Source: Escherichia coli
GTDB taxonomy: Bacteria; Pseudomonadota; Gammaproteobacteria; Enterobacterales; Enterobacteriaceae
NCBI RefSeq assembly: GCF_041886205.1
Contig: NZ_CP169029.1
DNA length: 64,000 nt
Strand: one strand, 5' to 3'
The stretch's first letter is position 1, and the number at the start of each line of letters is the position of its first letter. Under the pieces are notes generated by a model. The model was not told where the DNA came from. It did not search any database and was given only the letters and a program-made list of their open reading frames with translations. The position numbers and the translations under genes are program-made. Shown in pieces: positions 2,275-63,325 of this stretch.

Positions 2275-3045
2275 TTATGCCGCTTTATGTGCTTCTACCA
2301 TGATGATATCACTGGTGAAAGAGCCATCATTCTGCAAGGAAAAATACGTTCTCACCTCTGTCGATGCGCTCTGTTGGTAAATGCGAATAGCGTCTACTAA
2401 CGCTTCTGGCGTACGCATTCTCACGACCCATGAAGAAAATTCCAGCGGTAACTTATCTGTAATTAAATTATCAACTATCAGATTGGCTTCATTGATTAAC
2501 GTCAACCACTCACCGCTGGCGTAGTTTCGTACGTGAGAGGTATCGCGTAATGCTTCTACCGTCTGTAACCAGATGTCGCGCACTGGGTGGCCCGGAGACA
2601 TTACGTCCATCACAATCAGCCTACCGCCAGGTTTCAATATCCTATTCACTTCACGCAGTGCTGCACCAACATCATGCCAGTGATGGGCAGAATAACGGCT
2701 GATAACAATATCAAATGCGTTATCGGCAAATGGCAGACTTTCGGCATAACCCTGGCGGGTGGTGATATTTTTCAGTTGCCGGGCTTCGGCAGCTTGTGCC
2801 ACGACATCCAGCATTTGGGCAGATAAGTCATACGCCACCACCGCGCTCACGTTTTGCGCAGCGACAAAGCTGGCATGCCCTGCTCCGCAGCCCATATCAA
2901 GTACACTTGCATCAGGATAATCAGCCAGACGCACCGCCAGGCGCTGTAAATCTCGTCCGGATGCATGTACGGTACTAGTCAGATATTCGCTGGCTTGAGA
3001 GCTAAACTGCTTTTCTACGTGGTCATGGTGGGATTGTGTTGTCAT
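2275..3045 (-). CDS. yafE: Class I SAM-dependent methyltransferase (UbiE/COQ5-like)
   Basis: 256-aa ORF with SAM-binding motif I (VLDMGCGAGH); position between mltD and yafD matches yafE. Confidence 0.85.
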   Translation of the reverse strand: MTTQSHHDHVEKQFSSQASEYLTSTVHASGRDLQRLAVRLADYPDASVLDMGCGAGHASFVAAQNVSAVVAYDLSAQMLDVVAQAAEARQLKNITTRQGYAESLPFADNAFDIVISRYSAHHWHDVGAALREVNRILKPGGRLIVMDVMSPGHPVRDIWLQTVEALRDTSHVRNYASGEWLTLINEANLIVDNLITDKLPLEFSSWVVRMRTPEALVDAIRIYQQSASTEVRTYFSLQNDGSFTSDIIMVEAHKAA

Positions 3046-3122
3046 TGCGCTGTCCTTTTGTTGTTTGAGTATAAAAGGGCAGCGCCAAACGTTGGTCTGC
3101 CCTGTGGCAGACCTGACATACC

Positions 3123-4163: not shown

Positions 4164-5078
4164 ATGAAAGCCACGTCGGAAGAACTCGCCATTTTTGTTT
4201 CGGTCGTCGAAAGCGGCAGCTTTAGCCGGGCAGCGGAACAATTAGGGCAAGCAAACTCAGCGGTAAGCCGGGCGGTGAAAAAGCTGGAGATGAAACTTGG
4301 CGTTAGCCTGCTTAATCGGACCACGCGACAACTTAGCCTGACGGAAGAAGGCGAGCGTTATTTTCGTCGCGTACAGTCAATTTTGCAGGAGATGGCAGCG
4401 GCAGAATCAGAAATTATGGAGACGCGTAATACACCGCGTGGACTGTTACGGATCGATGCCGCAACTCCAGTGGTGCTGCACTTTCTAATGCCGTTAATTA
4501 AGCCTTTCCGTGAACGCTATCCGGAAGTCACTTTATCGCTAGTCTCCTCCGAAACGATTATTAATTTGATCGAAAGAAAAGTGGATGTCGCGATACGCGC
4601 CGGTACGTTAACGGATTCCAGCTTACGTGCCAGACCGTTATTTAACAGTTATCGAAAAATTATCGCCTCCCCCGATTATATTTCCCGCTACGGGAAGCCA
4701 GAAACGATCGACGATTTAAAGCAACATGTTTGCCTGGGATTCACTGAACCCGCTTCCCTCAATACCTGGCCGATAGCCTGTAGTGATGGACAATTACATG
4801 AGGTGAAGTACGGTTTGTCATCCAATAGTGGGGAAACACTGAAACAGCTTTGCCTGAGTGGCAACGGGATTGCGTGTTTGTCCGACTACATGATCGACAA
4901 AGAAATCGCTCGCGGAGAATTGGTGGAGTTAATGGCAGATAAAGTGTTGCCAGTGGAAATGCCATTCAGTGCAGTCTATTACAGCGACCGTGCGGTAAGT
5001 ACGCGCATCCGGGCTTTTATCGATTTCCTTAGCGAGCATGTAAAAACAGCTCCCGGAGGAGCTGTCAGAGAGGCTTAA
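4164..5078 (+). CDS. yafC: LysR-family transcriptional regulator
   Basis: 304-aa ORF with N-terminal HTH ([23 protein letters not shown]) and LysR substrate-binding domain; divergent from yafD. Confidence 0.9.
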
Positions 5079-9285: not shown

Positions 9286-9394
9286 TCACAACCCGAAGAT
9301 GTTTCTTTCGATTCATCATCGTGTTGCGAAAATTTGAGAGACTCACGAACAACTTTCGTTGTTCAGTGTTTCAATTTTCAGCTTGATCCAGATT

Positions 9395-9405
9395 TTTAAA
9401 GAGCA
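9395..9405 (-). promoter_or_regulatory. boxA-like antitermination element in the 16S-23S spacer
   Basis: Minus strand reads tgctctttaaa, matching the boxA core (TGCTCTTTAACAA) used by the rrn antitermination system. Confidence 0.5.
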
Positions 9406-12398: not shown

Positions 12399-13430
12399 AT
12401 GATAAAACTTTCGAATATCACCAAAGTGTTCCACCAGGGCACCCGCACCATCCAGGCGTTGAACAACGTCAGCCTGCATGTGCCAGCTGGACAAATTTAT
12501 GGCGTTATCGGTGCCTCAGGCGCGGGTAAGAGTACGCTTATACGTTGTGTAAACCTGCTGGAGCGCCCAACCGAGGGTAGCGTGCTGGTCGATGGCCAGG
12601 AACTGACCACGCTGTCAGAATCCGAGTTGACCAAAGCTCGCCGCCAGATTGGTATGATTTTCCAGCATTTTAACCTGCTCTCTTCGCGTACTGTTTTTGG
12701 CAACGTGGCTCTGCCGCTGGAGCTGGACAACACACCGAAAGACGAGATCAAACGTCGCGTGACGGAATTGCTGTCATTGGTTGGTCTTGGCGATAAGCAT
12801 GATAGCTACCCATCGAATCTTTCCGGTGGGCAGAAACAGCGTGTGGCGATTGCCCGTGCGTTAGCCAGCAATCCCAAAGTATTGCTGTGTGATGAAGCCA
12901 CCAGCGCGCTGGACCCGGCAACGACACGTTCTATTCTCGAGCTGCTGAAAGACATTAACCGCCGTCTGGGTTTGACGATTCTGTTGATCACCCACGAAAT
13001 GGACGTTGTAAAGCGTATTTGTGATTGCGTGGCGGTCATCAGCAATGGCGAACTGATCGAGCAGGACACGGTAAGTGAAGTGTTTTCGCATCCGAAAACG
13101 CCGTTGGCGCAGAAGTTTATTCAGTCGACCCTGCATCTGGATATCCCGGAAGATTACCAGGAACGTCTGCAAGCGGAGCCATTCACTGACTGCGTGCCGA
13201 TGCTGCGTCTGGAGTTTACCGGTCAGTCGGTCGATGCCCCACTGCTTTCTGAAACCGCGCGTCGTTTCAACGTCAACAACAACATTATTAGCGCGCAGAT
13301 GGACTACGCCGGTGGCGTTAAGTTCGGCATCATGCTGACTGAAATGCACGGCACACAACAAGATACGCAAGCCGCCATTGCCTGGCTGCAGGAACACCAT
13401 GTAAAAGTAGAGGTACTGGGTTATGTCTGA
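12399..13430 (+). CDS. metN: Methionine ABC transporter ATP-binding protein
   Basis: 343-aa ORF with Walker A (GASGAGKST), ABC signature (LSGGQKQR) and Walker B (LLCDE); C-terminal regulatory domain. Confidence 0.95.
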
Positions 13431-15048: not shown

Positions 15049-15453
15049 ATGCGTGCTTTACCGATCTGTTTAGTAGCACTCATGCTAAGCGGCTGTTCCA
15101 TGTTAAGCAGATCCCCTGTCGAACCCGTTCAAAGCACTGCACCCCAGCCGAAAGCGGAGCCTGCAAAACCGAAAGCGCCGCGCGCCACGCCGGTCCGAAT
15201 TTATACCAATGCAGAAGAATTAGTCGGCAAACCGTTCCGCGATCTCGGTGAAGTCAGTGGCGACTCTTGCCAGGCCTCTAATCAGGACTCTCCGCCGAGC
15301 ATTCCAACCGCACGTAAGCGGATGCAAATCAACGCCTCTAAAATGAAAGCCAATGCTGTATTACTGCATAGCTGCGAAGTCACCAGCGGTACGCCAGGCT
15401 GCTATCGTCAGGCTGTATGTATCGGTTCTGCGCTTAACATTACGGCGAAATGA
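15049..15453 (+). CDS. rcsF: Outer-membrane lipoprotein RcsF (Rcs phosphorelay sensor)
   Basis: 134-aa ORF; lipobox (LSGC); proline/lysine-rich linker; conserved C-terminal cysteines. Confidence 0.93.
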   Translation: MRALPICLVALMLSGCSMLSRSPVEPVQSTAPQPKAEPAKPKAPRATPVRIYTNAEELVGKPFRDLGEVSGDSCQASNQDSPPSIPTARKRMQINASKMKANAVLLHSCEVTSGTPGCYRQAVCIGSALNITAK

Positions 15454-18926: not shown

Positions 18927-19009
18927 GTAGGCATGATAAGACGCGTCAGCGTCGCATCAGGCGTTGAGCGCCATTGCCGGATGCGGCGTGAACGCCTTAT
19001 CCGGCCTAC
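18927..19009. repeat. BIME: two REP (repetitive extragenic palindrome) units in inverted orientation
   Basis: gtaggcatgataagacgcgtcagcgtcgcatcaggc (18927-18962) and gccggatgcggcgtgaacgccttatccggcctac (18976-19009); canonical REP consensus. Confidence 0.85.
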
Positions 19010-19808: not shown

Positions 19809-20231
19809 TTATTCCCGACCGCTGCGTACTTTGCCGCGCATCGCCTTCACGCTTGATTTTTGTGCTTTCGATGCCAGCCTGCGCTCTTTCGATGCACGGG
19901 TGGGCCGCGTGGGTCGTCGGGCTTTTTGTTCTTTTGTTAAATCTTTAATCACTGCCACCAGCCGGGCCAGAGCGGCTTCGCGGTTCAGTTCCTGACTGCG
20001 GTATTCCTGTGCCTTAATGACAATCACGCCATCACTGCTGATCAAATGATGGCTGGCGGCGAGCAGACGCTCTTTGTAATACTCTGGCAGGCTGGACGCC
20101 CGAATGTCAAAACGCAGATGAATAGCCGTTGAGGTCTTATTAACATGCTGCCCGCCAGCGCCCTGCGCACGAATGGCGGTGATCTCAAGCTCACCATCGG
20201 GAATAGCAACATGTCGGGAAATCACAATCAT
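19809..20231 (-). CDS. arfB: Peptidyl-tRNA hydrolase ArfB (alternative ribosome-rescue factor B)
   Basis: 140-aa ORF with GGQ motif ([10 protein letters not shown]) and a basic C-terminal tail. Confidence 0.95.
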
Positions 20232-20773
20232 GAAGGTTGTTGCCAGGCAGTTAAGTTAACTTCCAGATTATTCTTATCATCCGATAACCAGATCACACCA
20301 TCCTGAATCGTTGCCTGCAGCGTCATGGTACGATCGGCAAAGGCGCTTACTTTCGCCAGTTGTTCATCGTCCAGATACCAGACGGAAAGATTGGCAAACT
20401 GCACACATTTGCTCTGATTTTGCTGCCACCAGATTTGCGCCGCCCGACTATTATAGGTAAACAGCGCCACTTCTGCGGCCTGGGTGCAGGCTTTCTTAAT
20501 CCGCCGCTCATCCGGCAGCCCCAGCTCAATCCACAAATCAATGCCCAGGTGATCGTTACGCAGCCACGCTTCCGGCTCATCATCGGCACACAAACCACGG
20601 GTAAATTGCAGACGTTCATCAGCATATTTCAGCCACGCCAGCAAGCGCAGCATCATACGCTCCTGGGTTTCTGAAGGGTGGCGCGCCAGCGTCAGAGAGG
20701 CATCGAGAAACTGGTTGCGGTCGAGATCGGCCACATTAACCGTCGCTTTATAAATTGTCGCTTTAAGCGCCAT
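20228..20773 (-). CDS. yaeQ: YaeQ family protein
   Basis: 181-aa ORF; 4-bp overlap with the arfB start; recognised YaeQ. Confidence 0.9.
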
Positions 20774-20938
20774 AAGAAAACTCCTTTCGAATCAGGAGGC
20801 CATTGTAACGGAATACGTGCAGTTGCGGCGCTGATATTGCAGAAATGAGTGTGGTATAGTCACCTTGCGAAACAGAGTTTATCTTCGTAGGCTTAGACTT
20901 GCATCCACGGTTAAGTCAGAGTGCTGACAGGAGGGCAT

Positions 20939-21139
20939 GTGGAAAAATATTGTGAGTTAATACGCAAGCGGTACGCGGAAATCGCCAGCGGAGACTTAGG
21001 ATACGTTCCGGACGCGCTGGGCTGCGTTTTGAAAGTGCTGAATGAAATGGCTGCCGACGACGCCCTTTCTGAGGCTGTCAGGGAAAAAGCAGCATACGCT
21101 GCGGCAAACTTACTGGTGAGCGATTATGTCAATGAATGA
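20939..21139 (+). CDS. yaeP: UPF0253 family small protein YaeP
   Basis: 66-aa protein ([24 protein letters not shown]...) from a GTG start at 20939 preceded by AGGAGG; the track ORF from 20921 adds six upstream codons. Confidence 0.8.
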
Positions 21140-21386
21140 TACGTATCAACCAATCAATTGTGATGATTACGATAATCTTGAGCTAGCCTGCCAGCATCAT
21201 TTAATGCTGACACTTGAGCTGAAAGATGGCGAAAAATTGCAGGCAAAAGCCAGCGATTTAGTCTCCCGCAAAAATGTGGAGTATCTGGTCGTCGAGGCCG
21301 CTGGCGAAACCCGTGAGCTACGTCTGGATAAAATTACCAGCTTTAGCCACCCGGAAATCGGTACGGTGGTGGTGAGCGAGTCCTGA
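21132..21386 (+). CDS. rof: Rho-binding antiterminator Rof (YaeO)
   Basis: 84 aa from [19 protein letters not shown]; overlaps the yaeP stop (atgaATGA); an alternative start two codons upstream at 21126 is possible. Confidence 0.9.
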
Positions 21387-21394
21387 TTGACTTT

Positions 21395-21428
21395 CGCCGG
21401 ATGCGACGTTTGATGCGTCTTATCCGGC
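21395..21428. repeat. REP element between rof and tilS
   Basis: cgccggatgcgacgtttgatgcgtcttatccggc, a REP-like imperfect palindrome. Confidence 0.7.
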
Positions 21429-21434
21429 TTTCAC

Positions 21435-22733
21435 TTAACTAAGCGTTTTCTGCCAGACAAAACTTACGCCATTCTCACCTTCAGCCACACCTTCTTGCGT
21501 CACAAATACCCCTGCCGCCGCAATCAGCGTTTCGCCATAAAACAGCAGTGGCGTGGTGTCACGTAGCCACGGCGGCACGCCTAACTCTTGCCAGATTTTC
21601 TTCAGCTTACGTCCGCCGTTGCGCCCGACAATATGCAGCAATCCTGCCGCTTTGAAACGCACGCTGACCGCTTCGTCTGCACGCGGAGGGCGAATATCGA
21701 CTCCCGCAGTAAGCTGTACACTTCCCAGCCCCGCCGGTAATTCCAGCGGTTGTAGCCACGTCTGCCACGGCACAATGGTTTCGCTTTGCCCGGCAACGGA
21801 TTTAATCCACCACAGTTGCGATTGATAGCGGCGTATTTCAAACGCGCCAAAGCGTAAACAGGGGGAGGCATCTTCCCGCGCCAGCGCCACTTCCTGCCAG
21901 ATCCGCACCAGCGCGTCGCGGGAAGGCATCGGTGCATTCTGCCCTGCCAGCCAGCGGCGGATAATTGCCGCGCGACGGGCATCACTCATCGCCAGCATTG
22001 GCGCAATCTGCAGCGTCCCCTGCGGCGTTTGGCAGTGCGCTAAATCATCTGCCAGCAATTCATCCAGCAGGCTCTCTTGTTCAGCACAAAGTGCGGCGCT
22101 GCGAGCCGTTGCTTCGGCAAAATGCGGCCAACGCTGCTGCAATAACGGCACTACACGCAGGCGCAGAAAGTTACGATCGTATGAGTCGTCCTGATTACTT
22201 TCGTCTTCAATCCAGCGTAAACCATGCGCTAATGCCCACTGCTCCAGTTCCCCCCGCGTGCGGGCGAGCAACGGGCGGATAAGCCGTGTTCCGGCAAACT
22301 CCGAAACTTCCCCCATAGCCGAAAGCCCGGCAGGACCGCTACCGCGTTTTAGCGCCAGCAGAAAAGTTTCACATTGATCGTCGAGATGTTGCGCGGTGAC
22401 CAGCACTTCACCGGGCAACAAGGTGCGGGCAAATGCCTGATAACGCACCTGCCGCGCCTGGGCCTCAATCCCCAGCCCCTCTTGCGCAAGTTGTACGCGT
22501 TCGACCACCAGCGGCACCTGCCACTGTTGGCAGACGTTTTCGCAATGCGTAACCCAGGCATCGGCATTGGCACTTAAACCGTGATGCACATGAATAGCGC
22601 GCAGAGTGACGCCCGGATTTTCCGTCCGCCACTGCACCAACTGATGCAGCAGAACGGTGGAGTCAAGCCCGCCGCTAAAGGCCACCAGAATCTGGCGTGA
22701 GGTGAGAAGTTGTCTATTGAGCGTGAGTGTCAT
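21435..22733 (-). CDS. tilS: tRNA(Ile)-lysidine synthetase
   Basis: 432-aa ORF with PP-loop motif (SGGLDS); recognised TilS/MesJ. Confidence 0.95.
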
Positions 22734-29974: not shown

Positions 29975-30571
29975 TCAGGACGCAAGTCCCAGTGCGCGTT
30001 TGACAGGCCCAAAGCTGCGACGATGATGTTCAGTCGCGCCATATTCAGCCAGTTTTTCCAGATGAAAAGCGGTTGGATACCCTTTATGTTGGGCAAAACC
30101 ATATTGCGGGAAAACAATATCCAGCGCCGCCATTTCGGCGTCGCGCGTCACTTTCGCCAGGATAGACGCGGCACTGATTTCCGGTACGCGGCTATCGCCT
30201 TTCACCACTGCCATCGAAGGCATCGGTAATTTCGGGCAGCGGTTACCATCAATCAACACATATTCCGGCGCAATATGCAGCCCAGCGACGGCTCGCTGCA
30301 TCGCCAGCATGGTCGCATGAAGAATGTTCAGCTCGTCGATTTCGTAGGGTTCCGCGCGGCCCAGACTCCAGCTCAACGCTTTCTCTTTGATCTCTTCACA
30401 GAGCGCCAGACGACGTTTTTCGCTCAGCTTTTTGGAATCATTCAGCCCGGCAATCGGGCGCGCCGGGTCGAGAATCACCGCAGCGGTGACGACCGCGCCA
30501 ACTAACGGCCCGCGTCCGACTTCATCCACACCCGCAACCAGGTGCGTGTGCGGATAAACAAATTCGATCAT
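29975..30571 (-). CDS. rnhB: Ribonuclease HII
   Basis: 198-aa ORF; N-terminal GVDEVGRG motif. Confidence 0.96.
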
Positions 30572-31716
30572 TGTGCTAACTCCAGAACGGCTTGTGCCGC
30601 CTGCTCATCGGCATTGCAGCGGATCTGCTGATGCAGTTCACGGAAGGTATCGTGCATCGCGTGGCTGGTTTTCCCGTTCGCCAACAGCGGTAACAGCGCC
30701 GCAGCCAGTTTTTGCGGCTCACACTCTTCCTGCAATAACTCTTTGACTAACTCTCTGCCCGCCAGCAGATTTGGCAGCGAGACATAATCAGTTTTCACCA
30801 GCCGCTTCGCCAACCAGAAGGTAAAAGGCTTCATGCGATATCCCACCACCATCGGGCATTTCGCCAGCATACACTCCAGGGCTGCCGTCCCCGACGCCAG
30901 TAGTGCCGCATCGCTGGCGACCATCGCCTCACGGCCCATTCCATCCAGCAAATGAACCGACAGGTCTGGCGCGACTTCAGCTTTGATGCGTTCAAACTGC
31001 TCGCGGCGTTTGGCATTCACCAGCGGCACCACGATTTCGAGATCCGGATATGTCTGGCGCAAAAGCTGGGCAGTTTTCAGGAAATCGGCACTAAGCATTT
31101 CGACTTCTGCACCACGGCTGCCCGGCAACAATGCCAGACAGTGGGCATCGTAAGGGATCCCCAGCACATCACGGGCACCATTTTTATCTGGATCTAACGG
31201 CATGGCATCAGCCATGGTATGACCGATAAAGCGGCACGGTACATTGTATTTGTCATAAAACGCTTTTTCGAAAGGCAGAAATGCGAGCACCAGATCGGTG
31301 GCTCTGCCTATTTTGAAAACGCGTTTCTGTCGCCACGCCCAGACGGATGGACTGACGTAATGAATGGTTTTGATACCCTGCTTTTTGAGGTTACCTTCAA
31401 GAGTAATATTGAAGTCGGGCGCATCAATACCAACAAAAACATCTGGCTTCAGTTCGCCAAAACGCTTTGTCAGATCGGCACGAATATGCAGTAAGCGACG
31501 CAGACGACCGAGCACTTCAACAATGCCCATCACCGCCAGTTCTTCCATTTCGTACCAGGCTTCGCAGCCTTCAGCCTGCATTCGTGGCCCGGCAACGCCA
31601 ACAAAGCGGGCGTTGGGCACACGTTCTTTCAGAGCGCGGATTAAACCGGCCCCCAGGATATCGCCGGAGGTTTCTCCGGCGACCAGGGCAATCGTTAATG
31701 GACGCTGTTCAGTCAT
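30568..31716 (-). CDS. lpxB: Lipid-A-disaccharide synthase
   Basis: 382-aa ORF; start overlaps the lpxA stop and stop overlaps the rnhB start. Confidence 0.96.
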
Positions 31717-32507: not shown

Positions 32508-32963
32508 TCAGGCCTCCCGGCTACGAGCACACATCATCGTTGCTTCGCAAACTACTTTACCATCGACCAGAGCAACCCCTTTAAAACGGGTCAGGCCGCG
32601 GCGCGTTTTTTCGAAAGTGACTTCCATGATCATTTGATCGCCAGGCACGACCGGGCGCTTGAAGCGCGCTTCGTCAATACCGGCGAAGTAGTACAGCTCA
32701 CCCGGTTCCAGTTTTCCTACGCTTTTAAACGCCAGAATACCTGTTGCCTGTGCCATTGCTTCCAGAATCAGCACACCCGGGAAAATCGGTTTTCCAGGGA
32801 AATGGCCCTGGAAGAATGGCTCATTGACAGAGACATTTTTTACTGCGCGCAGAAAACGACCTTCTTCAAAATCCAGCACGCGATCCACCAGTAAGAACGG
32901 GAAACGGTGCGGCAGAAGTTCTAAAATCTCTTCAATCTGCAGAGTATGAGTGTTAGTAGTCAA
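32508..32963 (-). CDS. fabZ: 3-hydroxyacyl-ACP dehydratase FabZ
   Basis: 151 aa from a TTG start ([12 protein letters not shown]...) preceded by AGGAAG; hotdog fold; the track ORF (182 aa) is an upstream extension. Confidence 0.9.
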
Positions 32964-33067
32964 GATACTCTTCCTGTCAAAATATAAGAAACGACAATAA
33001 TAACACGGCCTGCCGCAATCGTAAGAATGAGACAGGCCGTAAAGTTTGGCGAACAAAAGATGGAACG

Positions 33068-38517: not shown

Positions 38518-39375
38518 TTAAAGCGTCCTGAATACCAGTAACAACAAGCAAGCAAAGACCGGTACCGCAGCCGTCAGGCTATCAATACGATCTAAAATAC
38601 CACCGTGTCCTGGAATTAAATGACCGCTGTCCTTAATTCCTGCTTCACGCTTAAACATACTCTCGGTCAGATCGCCGAGCACTGAGGCTAACGCTGCGAC
38701 AATAGAGCAAATGAGTAAGGTGACGGGAGCGACGTCGAGATTCGCCCACATGCCATAACCCCATGAGATTACCGCTGCAGTAGCGAGTCCACCGATAAAG
38801 CCTTGCCAGGTTTTACCCGGAGAAACCTTCGGTGCCAGCTTATGTTTACCAAACAATTTGCCAAACATATATGCGCCGGAGTCAGCGCCCCATACCAGGA
38901 TCATGACATAGAGCAGCCATATTGCGCCACTGTAATGATTCTCGTCGTAGTGCCAGGCCCGTAACGCCAGCATGCCCCAGAAGAAGGGAACAATGGTTAG
39001 CACGCCAAAAATAAGGCGCAATGTTTTAGAGTTACGCCAGATTGCTGCGGAACCTGGGTAAAACAGCACCAGCAATAGCGCGACAATCCACCAACCCAGC
39101 GAAGCCCAAAGTGAGATTTCAACCAGCGGTTGATGAATATTTCGGTGATATTCCGGCAACAGAAAAAGCATCAGCGCCAACAATAACCCGCATAACACCG
39201 CCAACCATACTCGCTGCGAACGAGTGGTAAAACCGCTAAGCTGTCCCCATTCCCACGCTGCCAGCATGCAGACCACCAGCGTTACAATGGCGAACCCCAC
39301 CGGCGGCAACAGAAACAACGCCGCGATGACGACGGGTATTAACACAAAAGCAGATATCAGGCGATACTTCAGCAA
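38518..39375 (-). CDS. cdsA: Phosphatidate cytidylyltransferase (CDP-diglyceride synthase)
   Basis: 285-aa polytopic membrane protein; recognised CdsA. Confidence 0.95.
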
Positions 39376-39387
39376 AAGCGACCCCCA

Positions 39388-40149
39388 TCAGGCTGTTTCA
39401 TCACCGGGCTCGGTGCCGCCGAAACGACGCTCTCGATTAGCAAAGGCATTTAACGCCCCTTCAAAGTCTTGTTCATCGAAATCGGGCCAGAGAACATCTG
39501 TAAAGTAAAGTTCGGCATAGGCAATTTGCCAAAGCAAAAAGTTACTTATGCGATGCTCTCCCCCAGTCCTAATTACTAAATCTACAGGGGCCAGTTCATG
39601 CATACAGACATGCTGGTTTAGCATCTCTTCATCTATCTGATCTGGTTGCAGGCTTCCTTGCTGCACCTTTTCAGCCAGTTGCCTGACTCCCTGGACTATA
39701 TCCCAACGTCCACCGTAGTTCGCCGCAATATTCAGCGTCAGACCGGTATTCCCGGCTGTTAGCGCTTCAGATTTACGAATACGTTCTTGCAAACGCGAGT
39801 TAAAGCGACTGGTATCGCCAATAATACGCAGACGCACGTTATGTCGGTGCAGACTTTTTACTTCGCTATCGAGCGCCCACACAAACAGTTCCATTAACGC
39901 ACTGACTTCCTGCGCTGGTCGGTTCCAGTTTTCACTACTAAAGGCATACAGCGTTAACGCCTCAATACCGTTGTTGGCCGCAAAAGAGACAGCCCGGCGG
40001 ACGGATTTTGCCCCGGCTTTATGCCCAAAGGCTCGAATCTTCCCTTGCTTTTTTGCCCAGCGACCATTGCCGTCCATAATGATCGCAACATGACGGCAGC
40101 CATGCGCTGGCAATTTTTCGCTAAGTGGTTGAGTAGCAGACAACATCAC
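39388..40149 (-). CDS. ispU: Ditrans,polycis-undecaprenyl-diphosphate synthase
   Basis: 253-aa ORF with the cis-prenyltransferase motif (IIMDGNGRWA). Confidence 0.96.
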   Translation of the reverse strand: MMLSATQPLSEKLPAHGCRHVAIIMDGNGRWAKKQGKIRAFGHKAGAKSVRRAVSFAANNGIEALTLYAFSSENWNRPAQEVSALMELFVWALDSEVKSLHRHNVRLRIIGDTSRFNSRLQERIRKSEALTAGNTGLTLNIAANYGGRWDIVQGVRQLAEKVQQGSLQPDQIDEEMLNQHVCMHELAPVDLVIRTGGEHRISNFLLWQIAYAELYFTDVLWPDFDEQDFEGALNAFANRERRFGGTEPGDETA

Positions 40150-40204
40150 GCGTTTTTTATTCCCTGACAGGGTTTACGGTACTCAGGAATACTGAAGCCT
40201 ATAC

Positions 40205-57955: not shown

Positions 57956-58300
57956 TTAGATGCTAAAGGAAGAACCGCAACCGCAGGTGCTTTTCGCGTT
58001 CGGGTTGGTCACGATGAAACGAGAACCTTCCAGTCCTTCGGTGTAGTCAACGGAACCGCCGACCAGATATTGCAGGCTCATCGGATCAACCACCAGGCCA
58101 ACGCCCTGTTTTTCGATGGTCATATCGCCTTCGTTCACCTGATCATCAAAGGTGAAACCATACTGGAAGCCGCTGCAACCGCCACCGGTGATATACACGC
58201 GTAATTTCAGATTCGGGTTATCTTCGTCAGCGATCAGGCTTTTAACTTTGTTGGCTGCTGCGTCGGTAAACTCCAGCGGCAGTGCTACGTCATCACTCAT
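57956..58300 (-). CDS. erpA: Iron-sulfur cluster insertion protein ErpA (A-type carrier)
   Basis: 114 aa from [19 protein letters not shown]; C-terminal CGCG motif; the track ORF is extended 11 codons upstream. Confidence 0.94.
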
Positions 58301-58381
58301 ATTTTGCTCCAAACGACATCGGCAATTGGGCAAATTCTAACCCAATAATAATCGCCATTATCTAATACCCTGGTATTTCGT

Positions 58382-59821
<1,440 letters not shown>

Positions 59822-60027
59822 TCATACAAATAAGATGACGGCATTTTACTCGCACGTTCCATGAAAATCCTTTGCAAAGCGTAATGTTTCAAATGCACAA
59901 AACTTTTATACTCTAAGAAATCAGGATTGCACCAGTACAAGCAGCCTGATGTTTGACGAGTATTTAACTTGTTATGAATAACATAGAATAGCAGCCATTC
60001 ACTTTTTCTACGAATCAGGAACCCTCC

Positions 60028-61342: not shown

Positions 61343-63325
61343 TTAACGGCTCTGCTTTCTCAACAAATAGATAAAATATGGCGCGCCGATAAAGGTTGAC
61401 AGCAGCCCCGCCGGGATCTGGAATGGAAACAGCACCATCCGCCCACACCAGTCAGCGAACACCAGCAATAAACCACCCACCAGCGCCGAAATTACGATGT
61501 GCGGCATCGTCCGTCGAAAGCCCATCATCCGCGCAATATGCGGTGCCATTAAACCAACAAAACTCAACGGTCCAATAGTCATCGTCGCGGTCGCCGTCAG
61601 GCAAGCCGCTAACAGCAGCAGCGCAATTCGCGTCGGCGTCAGCGCCATTCCTACGGCTCGGGCGGTATCACCACCCAGCGGTAAAATGGTCAGCCAGCGG
61701 CGGCACAGCGGGGTAATCGCCAGCAAAATCACCATCACAATTCCGGTGCGCCAGACCTGCGCATCGGTCGCGTTGTAGGTCGAACCGGAAATCCAGGTCA
61801 GCACTTGCGCCATTCGCGGGTCACCACTTGCCTGCAACATCATCAAAAGCATGGTGAACGCGGTACTTAACGCCATCCCCGCCAGTAACATGCGGTGTGG
61901 GGAAAATCCACCGCGTCCGGCGGCGATCATAATGATCAACAGCGTCACCGCCGCCCCGAGACTGCCTGCGGGTAACAGCCAGCCAAAGGCATTACCCGGT
62001 ACCAGAAACAGCATTAACACCACACCAAACGCCGCGCCGGAGCTAATCCCCAGCACTTCCGGGCTTGCCATCGGGTTGCCGGTCAGTCGCTGAATAATAC
62101 AGCCCGCTACCGCCAGCATGACGCCCGCAAACAGCGCCGCCATAATTCGCGGCCAGCGCCAGGGCATTAAATCCTCGAGCAACGCCCCGCTCGCCCACGT
62201 CCAGCCGTGCGCATCACGACCAAACGACAGCGCCACCACCACAGCCATCAACAACAGCACGCCGCCCGCGAGGGCAAACGCCAGCACATGTTGGCGTTCA
62301 GTCGCGACACGATCGTTAACCTTCATATCCGGCGCGCTAATGCTGCGTAAACGCGGCAGCAGCCACAGTAGCAGCGGCGCACCGATCAACGCAGTGACCG
62401 AACCGGTGGAAACTTCCATCCACACGCGAGTCAGCCAGAGGATGATTTGATCAGAAAGCCACAGAATTAACGCACCAATCAGCGACGCCAGCATCAACCG
62501 TGGCAACAAACGCCGCGCCCCCAGCATTTTTGCCAGCAGCGGCGCGAACAACCCGATAAAGCCGATAATCCCTACCGCATTCACCAGCAGCGCACTGATG
62601 ACTATCGCCAGCGACAGCGCCGCCAGACGCGCGAGCGACAAGGCCAGCCCGAGATTGCGCGCCACGCCATCATCAAGCCCCATCAGGGTTAACGGGCGAA
62701 GTAGCAATAACGTCAACATCACGCCGCCCAGCAACTGCGGCCATAAACGCTCAACGCCGCCCCAGTCGGTTTGCGTCAGCGTTCCGGTGCTCCACAGGAA
62801 CATGCTTTGCAGCTGGTCGTGATGGAAGATAACCAGTAGCTGATTAATTGCCCCGCAATAAAGGCTCACCACCAGCCCCGCGAGAATAAGCGTAACCGGC
62901 GAAAGCCGTTTCCCCCACGCGACGCCAAAGACGATTAAGCCAACGACACAAGCGCCCACCAGCGCGGCAAACTGGCTCGCCATAGCACCTGGGATCGCCC
63001 AAAGTGTGGTGACGGTAATTCCCAGTTGCGCGCCTGTAGCAACGCCAAGCGTCGTCGGCTCCGCCAGCGGGTTACGCAGCACTTGCTGAAACAGCACGCC
63101 CACCAGCCCCAGGCCCGCGCCCACCAGCAGCGAAATCGCCAGACGCGGCAACAAGCTGTAGTGAAAAATCATCTGCTCGATGACGTCAATATCCGGCGAC
63201 CAGGTGGCCTGCGCCCACTGGCTGCGCGGCAGCGCCTGCGAAAAAGTCATCCAGGTGAGCGCCGTAGCGGCAATCACCAACAGCGCCAGCAATAACGCCG
63301 GAAAAAGCGCAATTCGTTTACTCAC
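61343..63325 (-). CDS. fhuB: Ferric hydroxamate ABC transporter permease (duplicated permease domain)
   Basis: 660-aa polytopic ORF consisting of two FecCD-type halves; recognised FhuB. Confidence 0.96.
   Translation of the reverse strand: MSKRIALFPALLLALLVIAATALTWMTFSQALPRSQWAQATWSPDIDVIEQMIFHYSLLPRLAISLLVGAGLGLVGVLFQQVLRNPLAEPTTLGVATGAQLGITVTTLWAIPGAMASQFAALVGACVVGLIVFGVAWGKRLSPVTLILAGLVVSLYCGAINQLLVIFHHDQLQSMFLWSTGTLTQTDWGGVERLWPQLLGGVMLTLLLLRPLTLMGLDDGVARNLGLALSLARLAALSLAIVISALLVNAVGIIGFIGLFAPLLAKMLGARRLLPRLMLASLIGALILWLSDQIILWLTRVWMEVSTGSVTALIGAPLLLWLLPRLRSISAPDMKVNDRVATERQHVLAFALAGGVLLLMAVVVALSFGRDAHGWTWASGALLEDLMPWRWPRIMAALFAGVMLAVAGCIIQRLTGNPMASPEVLGISSGAAFGVVLMLFLVPGNAFGWLLPAGSLGAAVTLLIIMIAAGRGGFSPHRMLLAGMALSTAFTMLLMMLQASGDPRMAQVLTWISGSTYNATDAQVWRTGIVMVILLAITPLCRRWLTILPLGGDTARAVGMALTPTRIALLLLAACLTATATMTIGPLSFVGLMAPHIARMMGFRRTMPHIVISALVGGLLLVFADWCGRMVLFPFQIPAGLLSTFIGAPYFIYLLRKQSR

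Follow-up and report, generated by a model that had tools for sequence, protein, structure and literature searches.

Which codons start the genes of an Escherichia coli chromosome segment in which several neighbours overlap, and are the short overlaps sites of translational coupling? The question is posed most directly by yaeP, which appears to begin with GTG and overlaps the gene of the Rho inhibitor Rof, and by fabZ, which appears to begin with TTG. Very probably the organisation is a normal one, with GUG and UUG serving as the starts of yaeP and fabZ and the short overlaps representing operon junctions with coupling.

The window and its annotation

The window, the whole stretch of 64,000 nucleotides that was analysed, is an E. 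coli chromosome segment that runs from gloB/mltD through rrnH to fhuB/fhuD, in an orientation opposite to K-12 numbering. Positions 20600-21500 have matches in 5,424 of 5,426 complete E. coli genomes and are 100% identical to ATCC 8739; the rest of the window shows ~98-99% identity to ATCC 8739 and K-12 MG1655, with small indels. Two annotations were transferred by alignment: that of ATCC 8739 from RefSeq (PGAP) and the curated one of K-12. Coordinates of the features are collected in Table 1.

The 54 genes of the window have 45 ATG, seven GTG (yaeP, yafD, gmhB, lpxA, skp, frr and fhuB) and two TTG starts (fabZ and cdsA). Genome-wide, start usage in E. coli is roughly 83/14/3% for ATG/GTG/TTG. 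The mix in the window is genome-typical and nothing in it exceeds the genome norm; overlaps at nine of the 41 same-strand junctions are likewise unremarkable. A sequence-only reading of this DNA had named two of the nine non-ATG starts, yaeP and fabZ, and had warned that ATG-first calling of open reading frames mis-sets starts here. The warning was justified, as such calling is wrong for 11 of the 54 genes.

Several other features of the window were recorded. The two annotations place the start of ispU (minus strand, 40146-40151) at adjoining codons, K-12 at GTG 40149 (253 aa, MMLSATQ...) and PGAP at ATG 40146 (252 aa). In yafE (minus strand, 2882-3079) there are ~220 extra bases that are absent from K-12 and ATCC 8739. 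This long segment is found in 3,809 of 5,426 E. coli genomes, with 100% identity in LF82 and NRG 857C; an insertion was rejected, since most genomes have the long form and the short K-12 form results from an internal deletion. The convergent genes yafC (plus) and dkgB (minus) overlap by 4 nt in their stop codons (5075-5078). Two annotated proteins are very small: YadW (21 aa, 58293-58358, minus strand) and YadX (15 aa, 59815-59862, minus strand), the latter encoded just upstream of clcA. Rfam matches above the gathering score comprise, besides rRNA and tRNA genes, naRNA4 (a REP element between yaeF and nlpE, 18930-19006), CssrA (44116-44225), t44 (the rpsB leader, 45064-45150), the HtrA (degP) 5' UTR thermometer (54021-54066) and StyR-44 in the rrn operon (9293-9401). 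In this gathering scan of the whole window the yaeP-rof region had no match.

Table 1. Positions of start sites, gene overlaps and leader elements in the window
Feature	Position	Strand	Description
Promoter-like site for yaeP-rof	20831..20860	+	CTGATA, 18-nt spacer, TG-extended TATAGT; predicted by consensus scan
CCACG, putative 5' helix arm	20905..20909	+	would pair with U-GUG-G 20938-20942 and cover the start codon (RNAalifold)
Conserved 5-bp hairpin GUCAG-AGUG-CUGAC	20915..20928	+	abuts the Shine-Dalgarno sequence on its 5' side; loop holds GTG 20921-20923; 93.6% of cells paired
yaeP Shine-Dalgarno AGGAGG	20929-20934	+	4-nt spacer (GCAT) to GTG; aligned spacing D=12
AUGUG pentanucleotide	20937-20941	+	yaeP GUG plus out-of-frame AUG two bases 5'
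yaeP CDS	20939..21139	+	66 aa; GTG start, TGA stop; RefSeq and K-12 agree; NCBIfam NF003436 match
rof initiation-region footprint within yaeP	21110..21139	+	codons 58-67, TTA CTG GTG AGC GAT TAT GTC AAT GAA TGA
rof CDS	21126..21386	+	86 aa (RefSeq); K-12 start ATG 21132 gives 84 aa
metN/metI overlap	13423..13430	+	8 nt; window sequence
rcsF/tsaA overlap	15450..15453	+	4 nt, ATGA; window sequence
yaeQ/arfB overlap	20228..20231	-	4 nt, ATGA; window sequence
lpxB/rnhB overlap	30568..30571	-	4 nt, ATGA; window sequence
lpxA/lpxB overlap	31716..31716	-	1 nt, TAATG; window sequence
mtnN/btuF overlap	56448..56455	+	8 nt; window sequence
yadW/erpA overlap	58293..58300	-	8 nt; window sequence; missed by the sequence-only reading
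fhuD/fhuB overlap	63322..63325	-	4 nt, GTGA (fhuB start GTG); window sequence
fabZ CDS	32508..32963	-	151 aa, TTG start; both annotations agree
fabZ Shine-Dalgarno-like AGGAAG	32970-32975	-	6-nt spacer to TTG; AGGA(AG) D=14
cdsA	38518-39375	-	annotated TTG start

The start of yaeP and its AUGUG context

The yaeP locus was compared across 80 species-level Enterobacteriaceae genomes, which contribute 73 distinct sequences. The homologous start position is GTG in 78 of the 80 species and ATG in two, Phytobacter massiliensis (L033, Phytobacterium group) and Enterobacter sp. Bisph1 (L045). The remaining valine codons GTA, GTC and GTT are found at codon 1 in none of the 80, whereas internal valine codons are free to vary (V30: GTA 45, GTG 23, GTT 4; V33: GTG 30, GTA 24, GTT 13). 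The upstream GGAGG is invariant at constant distance in the 73 distinct sequences, and homologues are overwhelmingly called at the family length of 66 aa. AGGAGG would set GUG 20939 near the ribosomal P site. An initiation of yaeP at GTG 20939 behind AGGAGG, as the sequence-only reading had it, is thus borne out by two annotations and by the cross-species comparison.

The yaeP start lies within an AUGUG pentanucleotide, and yaeP is listed in a survey of such genes (PMC9841429, Nucleic Acids Res 2022; Table 2) as one of 18 that begin with atGTG, with the Shine-Dalgarno sequence AGGAGG, D=12, no predicted ambiguity and a PaxDb abundance of 94.5 ppm. The spacing computed here equals the published values, and there is no difference for E. 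coli. The present comparison goes beyond the survey, in whose text a search found no phylogenetic analysis: ~71 of the 73 distinct Enterobacteriaceae sequences preserve the AUGUG context. Of the 73, 72 have A(-2) and 71 have U(-1), next to variable positions -3 and -4. This strong A-U conservation before the GUG is left over by the standard-start account.

Could yaeP begin at another codon, or at two? The in-frame GTG at 20921-20923, where a mechanically called open reading frame has its first start, would give a 72-aa protein; 20921 is also the coordinate given in the sequence-only reading, and it differs from the start argued there. This codon is the first NTG past the upstream stop, and roughly one species in three has GTG or ATG there, but in most the triplet is ACG, ATA, GTA or similar and in four (L046, L051, L058 and L061) it is a TAG stop. 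In L062 a TAA immediately precedes the real start; in-frame stops just upstream are thus seen in five species. Without a Shine-Dalgarno sequence upstream, in the loop of a conserved hairpin and contrary to the 66-aa family length, the 72-aa form was rejected and has practically no chance of being the true one. Use of both codons of the AUGUG, with a mini-open reading frame from AUG 20937 that tunes or throttles yaeP-rof, is very unlikely. The conservation of A(-2) and U(-1) next to variable -3 and -4 positions speaks for it, and some AUGUG sites do allow dual initiation; an older report quoted in the same survey has GUG use cut 50-fold within an AUGUG context (PMC9841429). Against it, a Shine-Dalgarno sequence that places both codons within about D 12/14, as dual initiation takes, is not what yaeP has: GUG stands at D=12 and the AUG, with a 2-nt spacer, at D=10. 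In reporters hdhA and secF, whose AUGUG spacing is 11/13, initiated at GUG only (PMC9841429), and at a spacing of 10 the out-of-frame AUG would be too near the Shine-Dalgarno sequence to compete. The AUG-frame peptide is not conserved either, since the frame varies from one to seven codons (MWKNIVS* in the window) and consists of a bare AUG-UGA in 13 species. Conservation of U(-1) may alternatively be explained by pairing of CCACG with UGUGG. A standard GUG start of yaeP remains the preferred reading.

The CCACG/UGUGG helix over the yaeP start is itself a weak lead. RNAalifold has 97.6% of cells paired over 43 species, in a helix derived from the very sequences used to score the pairing, and there is one covarying pair, CG to UA, in eight sequences that probably form a single clade. 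The single-sequence fold of the leader is no more stable than shuffles (z = -0.83), and given this value a structured regulatory element is not claimed.

A near-consensus -35-like CTGACA lies on the 3' arm of the conserved hairpin, 16-18 nt before AATATT/TATTGT (20924-20953), and the latter falls in yaeP codons 3-5. Synonymous sites of codons 4-5 (TAT TGT) are invariant in the 73 sequences. The pattern could be an internal promoter, or could reflect selection for an AU-rich, unstructured initiation region.

The start of fabZ

A start of fabZ at TTG 32963 on the minus strand behind AGGAAG, also put forward from the sequence alone, finds support in both annotations and in comparison between genera. 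Four genera share the block GACAGGAAGAGTAT without a change, and E. coli, Pectobacterium and Leminorella have the longer GACAGGAAGAGTAT(C/T)TTG in common. The Photorhabdus codon homologous to the TTG is TAG and an ATG start follows directly, which pins the fabZ N-terminus to within one codon. Enterobacterales orthologues are called at 150-151 aa, and the FabZ entries of JGI have a literal L as first residue. The gene would be translated from UUG 32963 behind AGGAAG.

A 182-aa product from TTG 33056, 31 codons further upstream and the choice of mechanical open reading frame calling, was rejected. FabZ family profiles start at residue 39-40 of this long frame, equivalent to residue 8-9 once the annotated start is used; the 31-codon extension itself has no profile match, and no solved homologue aligned before residue 28. 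Over-extended FabZ predictions all read ...DRKSI-L-TT..., the ribosome-binding site read as protein, with a Leu-type codon after it.

A literature search for fabZ together with TTG/UUG gave a passing mention only and found no fabZ start experiment. Hikage et al. (2024; PMC11448367) name both cdsA and fabZ as TTG-initiated, as both are here, and report that several cdsA codons besides the annotated TTG are able to initiate. The single annotated cdsA start may therefore oversimplify. In the TRAINSPOTTER N-terminomics and TetRP supplements, no rows were found for N-termini or start-site mapping of YaeP, Rof or FabZ; cdsA and lpxA likewise have no rows in the TRAINSPOTTER N-terminomics supplements.

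Gene overlaps and probable translational coupling

Seven of the eight overlaps of 1-8 bp listed in the sequence-only reading are exact; the length of the remaining one, yaeP/rof, depends on the rof start, 8 nt with that of K-12 and 14 nt with that of RefSeq PGAP. Translational coupling is the standard reading of same-strand overlaps of 1, 4 and 8 nt. A ribosome that ends the upstream gene would, most likely, re-initiate at the nearby downstream start, and the outputs of the two genes would thereby be tied together; overlaps of 1, 4, 8 and possibly 14 nt would then be usual operon junctions. Such termination-reinitiation coupling is plausible for the overlaps of the window. Huber et al. (2019; PMC6728339) found termination-reinitiation in four of five native E. 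coli pairs with 4-nt overlaps. The window's rcsF/tsaA, yaeQ/arfB, lpxB/rnhB, lpxA/lpxB and fhuD/fhuB are, like those pairs, on the same strand within operons, with overlaps of 1 or 4 nt, and a further likeness is that some but not all have a Shine-Dalgarno-like motif within the upstream gene. Four pairs of the window differ from the 4-nt class by longer overlaps of 8 nt (for yaeP/rof 14 nt if the start of RefSeq is taken), and the tested set holds none of the window's pairs.

Are the overlaps instead neutral by-products of the turnover of starts and stops, with the downstream genes initiating alone and uncoupled? A mutational origin of short unidirectional overlaps has been modelled (PMC3887535), one of the five tested pairs, bioBF, is uncoupled (PMC6728339), and metI (GAGGT), rnhB (GGAG), fhuB (GGAGGT) and rof (GGTGA) have Shine-Dalgarno-like motifs of their own within the upstream gene; rof, for one, might initiate alone from its GGUGA. 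At arfB, tsaA and btuF, however, such motifs are absent or badly placed, and independent initiation would be weak. The two overlaps that were followed across species are conserved, yaeP/rof in 80 of 80 and yaeQ/arfB in ~75 of 77 (ATGA in ~70, TTGA in five), synonymous sites are frozen at yaeP/rof, and the other four tested E. coli pairs are coupled. A purely neutral origin is accordingly held to be quite unlikely. Evolutionary support for coupling comes from the kept overlap of yaeQ/arfB and, at yaeP/rof, from the invariant junction with its frozen codons 58-67.

The yaeP/rof junction and the Rof N-terminus

Essentially all 80 species share one and the same sequence, CTGGTGAGCGATTATGTCAATGAATGA, over the final 27 nt of yaeP. 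Over the 73 distinct sequences synonymous variation is near zero in codons 58-67 and free in codons 50-57; as both segments served as degenerate search patterns, the contrast is an internal control. The frozen block starts ~16 nt before the first rof ATG, where yaeP alone codes, and fits a constraint from rof initiation.

Where does rof begin? The Shine-Dalgarno-like GGUGA within yaeP stands at D=17 to ATG 21126 and at D=23 to ATG 21132. The former is kept in 80 of 80 species; the latter is absent in two (L017 and L026), through the yaeP-synonymous change of AAT to AAC. The NCBIfam model of Rof has 86 aa, and the forms in the PDB are mixed: 86 aa in 1SG5, 84 aa in 8W8D, and residues 4-86 with a tag in 8PTM. 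A protein search with Rof reached close Enterobacteriaceae relatives only. Comparison of the sequences slightly favours ATG 21126, a tilt that does not decide the matter. A third ATG (21136-21138), out of frame, makes a classic ATGA with the yaeP stop. In five proteins of 124-147 aa (P0241, P0248, P0251, P0292 and P0343) the Pfam domains of YaeP and Rof occur together; short ENA metagenome contigs are the source of all five, and a frameshift or misassembly within the overlap is a more probable cause than a true fusion.

The operon arrangement has been described before. An SgrS-terminator attenuator screen (PMC9765468, mBio 2022) noted that the yaeP stop overlaps the first rof codons, as it does here, which suggested that rof expression is modulated by yaeP. 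Said et al. (2024; PMC11018626) draw the yaeP/rof overlap at 8 nt and the yaeQ/arfB overlap at 4 nt, describe rof and arfB as lacking Shine-Dalgarno elements, and state that in Enterobacteriaceae rof always overlaps yaeP. In contrast to the 8-nt overlap, the rof start of RefSeq, NCBIfam and 1SG5 is 6 nt further upstream, hence 14 nt.

A more far-reaching reading is that the yaeP 5' region and the yaeP/rof junction act jointly as a conserved module of translational control by which the amount of Rof is set. The weak helix and the AUGUG context would throttle initiation of yaeP; Rof synthesis would depend strictly on ribosomes that terminate at the yaeP stop, within the frozen 30-nt stretch; translation of YaeP would serve mainly to gate Rof; and Rof would in truth begin as the 86-aa form does, with MSMNDTY, and not as the 84-aa K-12 form does. 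This reading is rather unlikely.

Significance

The starts of yaeP and fabZ and the overlaps are standard bacterial gene organisation, already annotated and published. What is added here is the cross-species conservation of the yaeP GUG and of its AUGUG context, the near absence of synonymous change in the last ten yaeP codons and the question of an 84- or 86-aa Rof. The significance is mainly one of annotation hygiene: open reading frame callers need GTG and TTG starts together with Shine-Dalgarno and comparative information. The frozen yaeP/rof junction supports, without proving, the published idea that translation of yaeP controls Rof. The choice between 86 and 84 aa has a practical consequence, since Rho is contacted by the N-terminal region of Rof, and either form has served in structural work.
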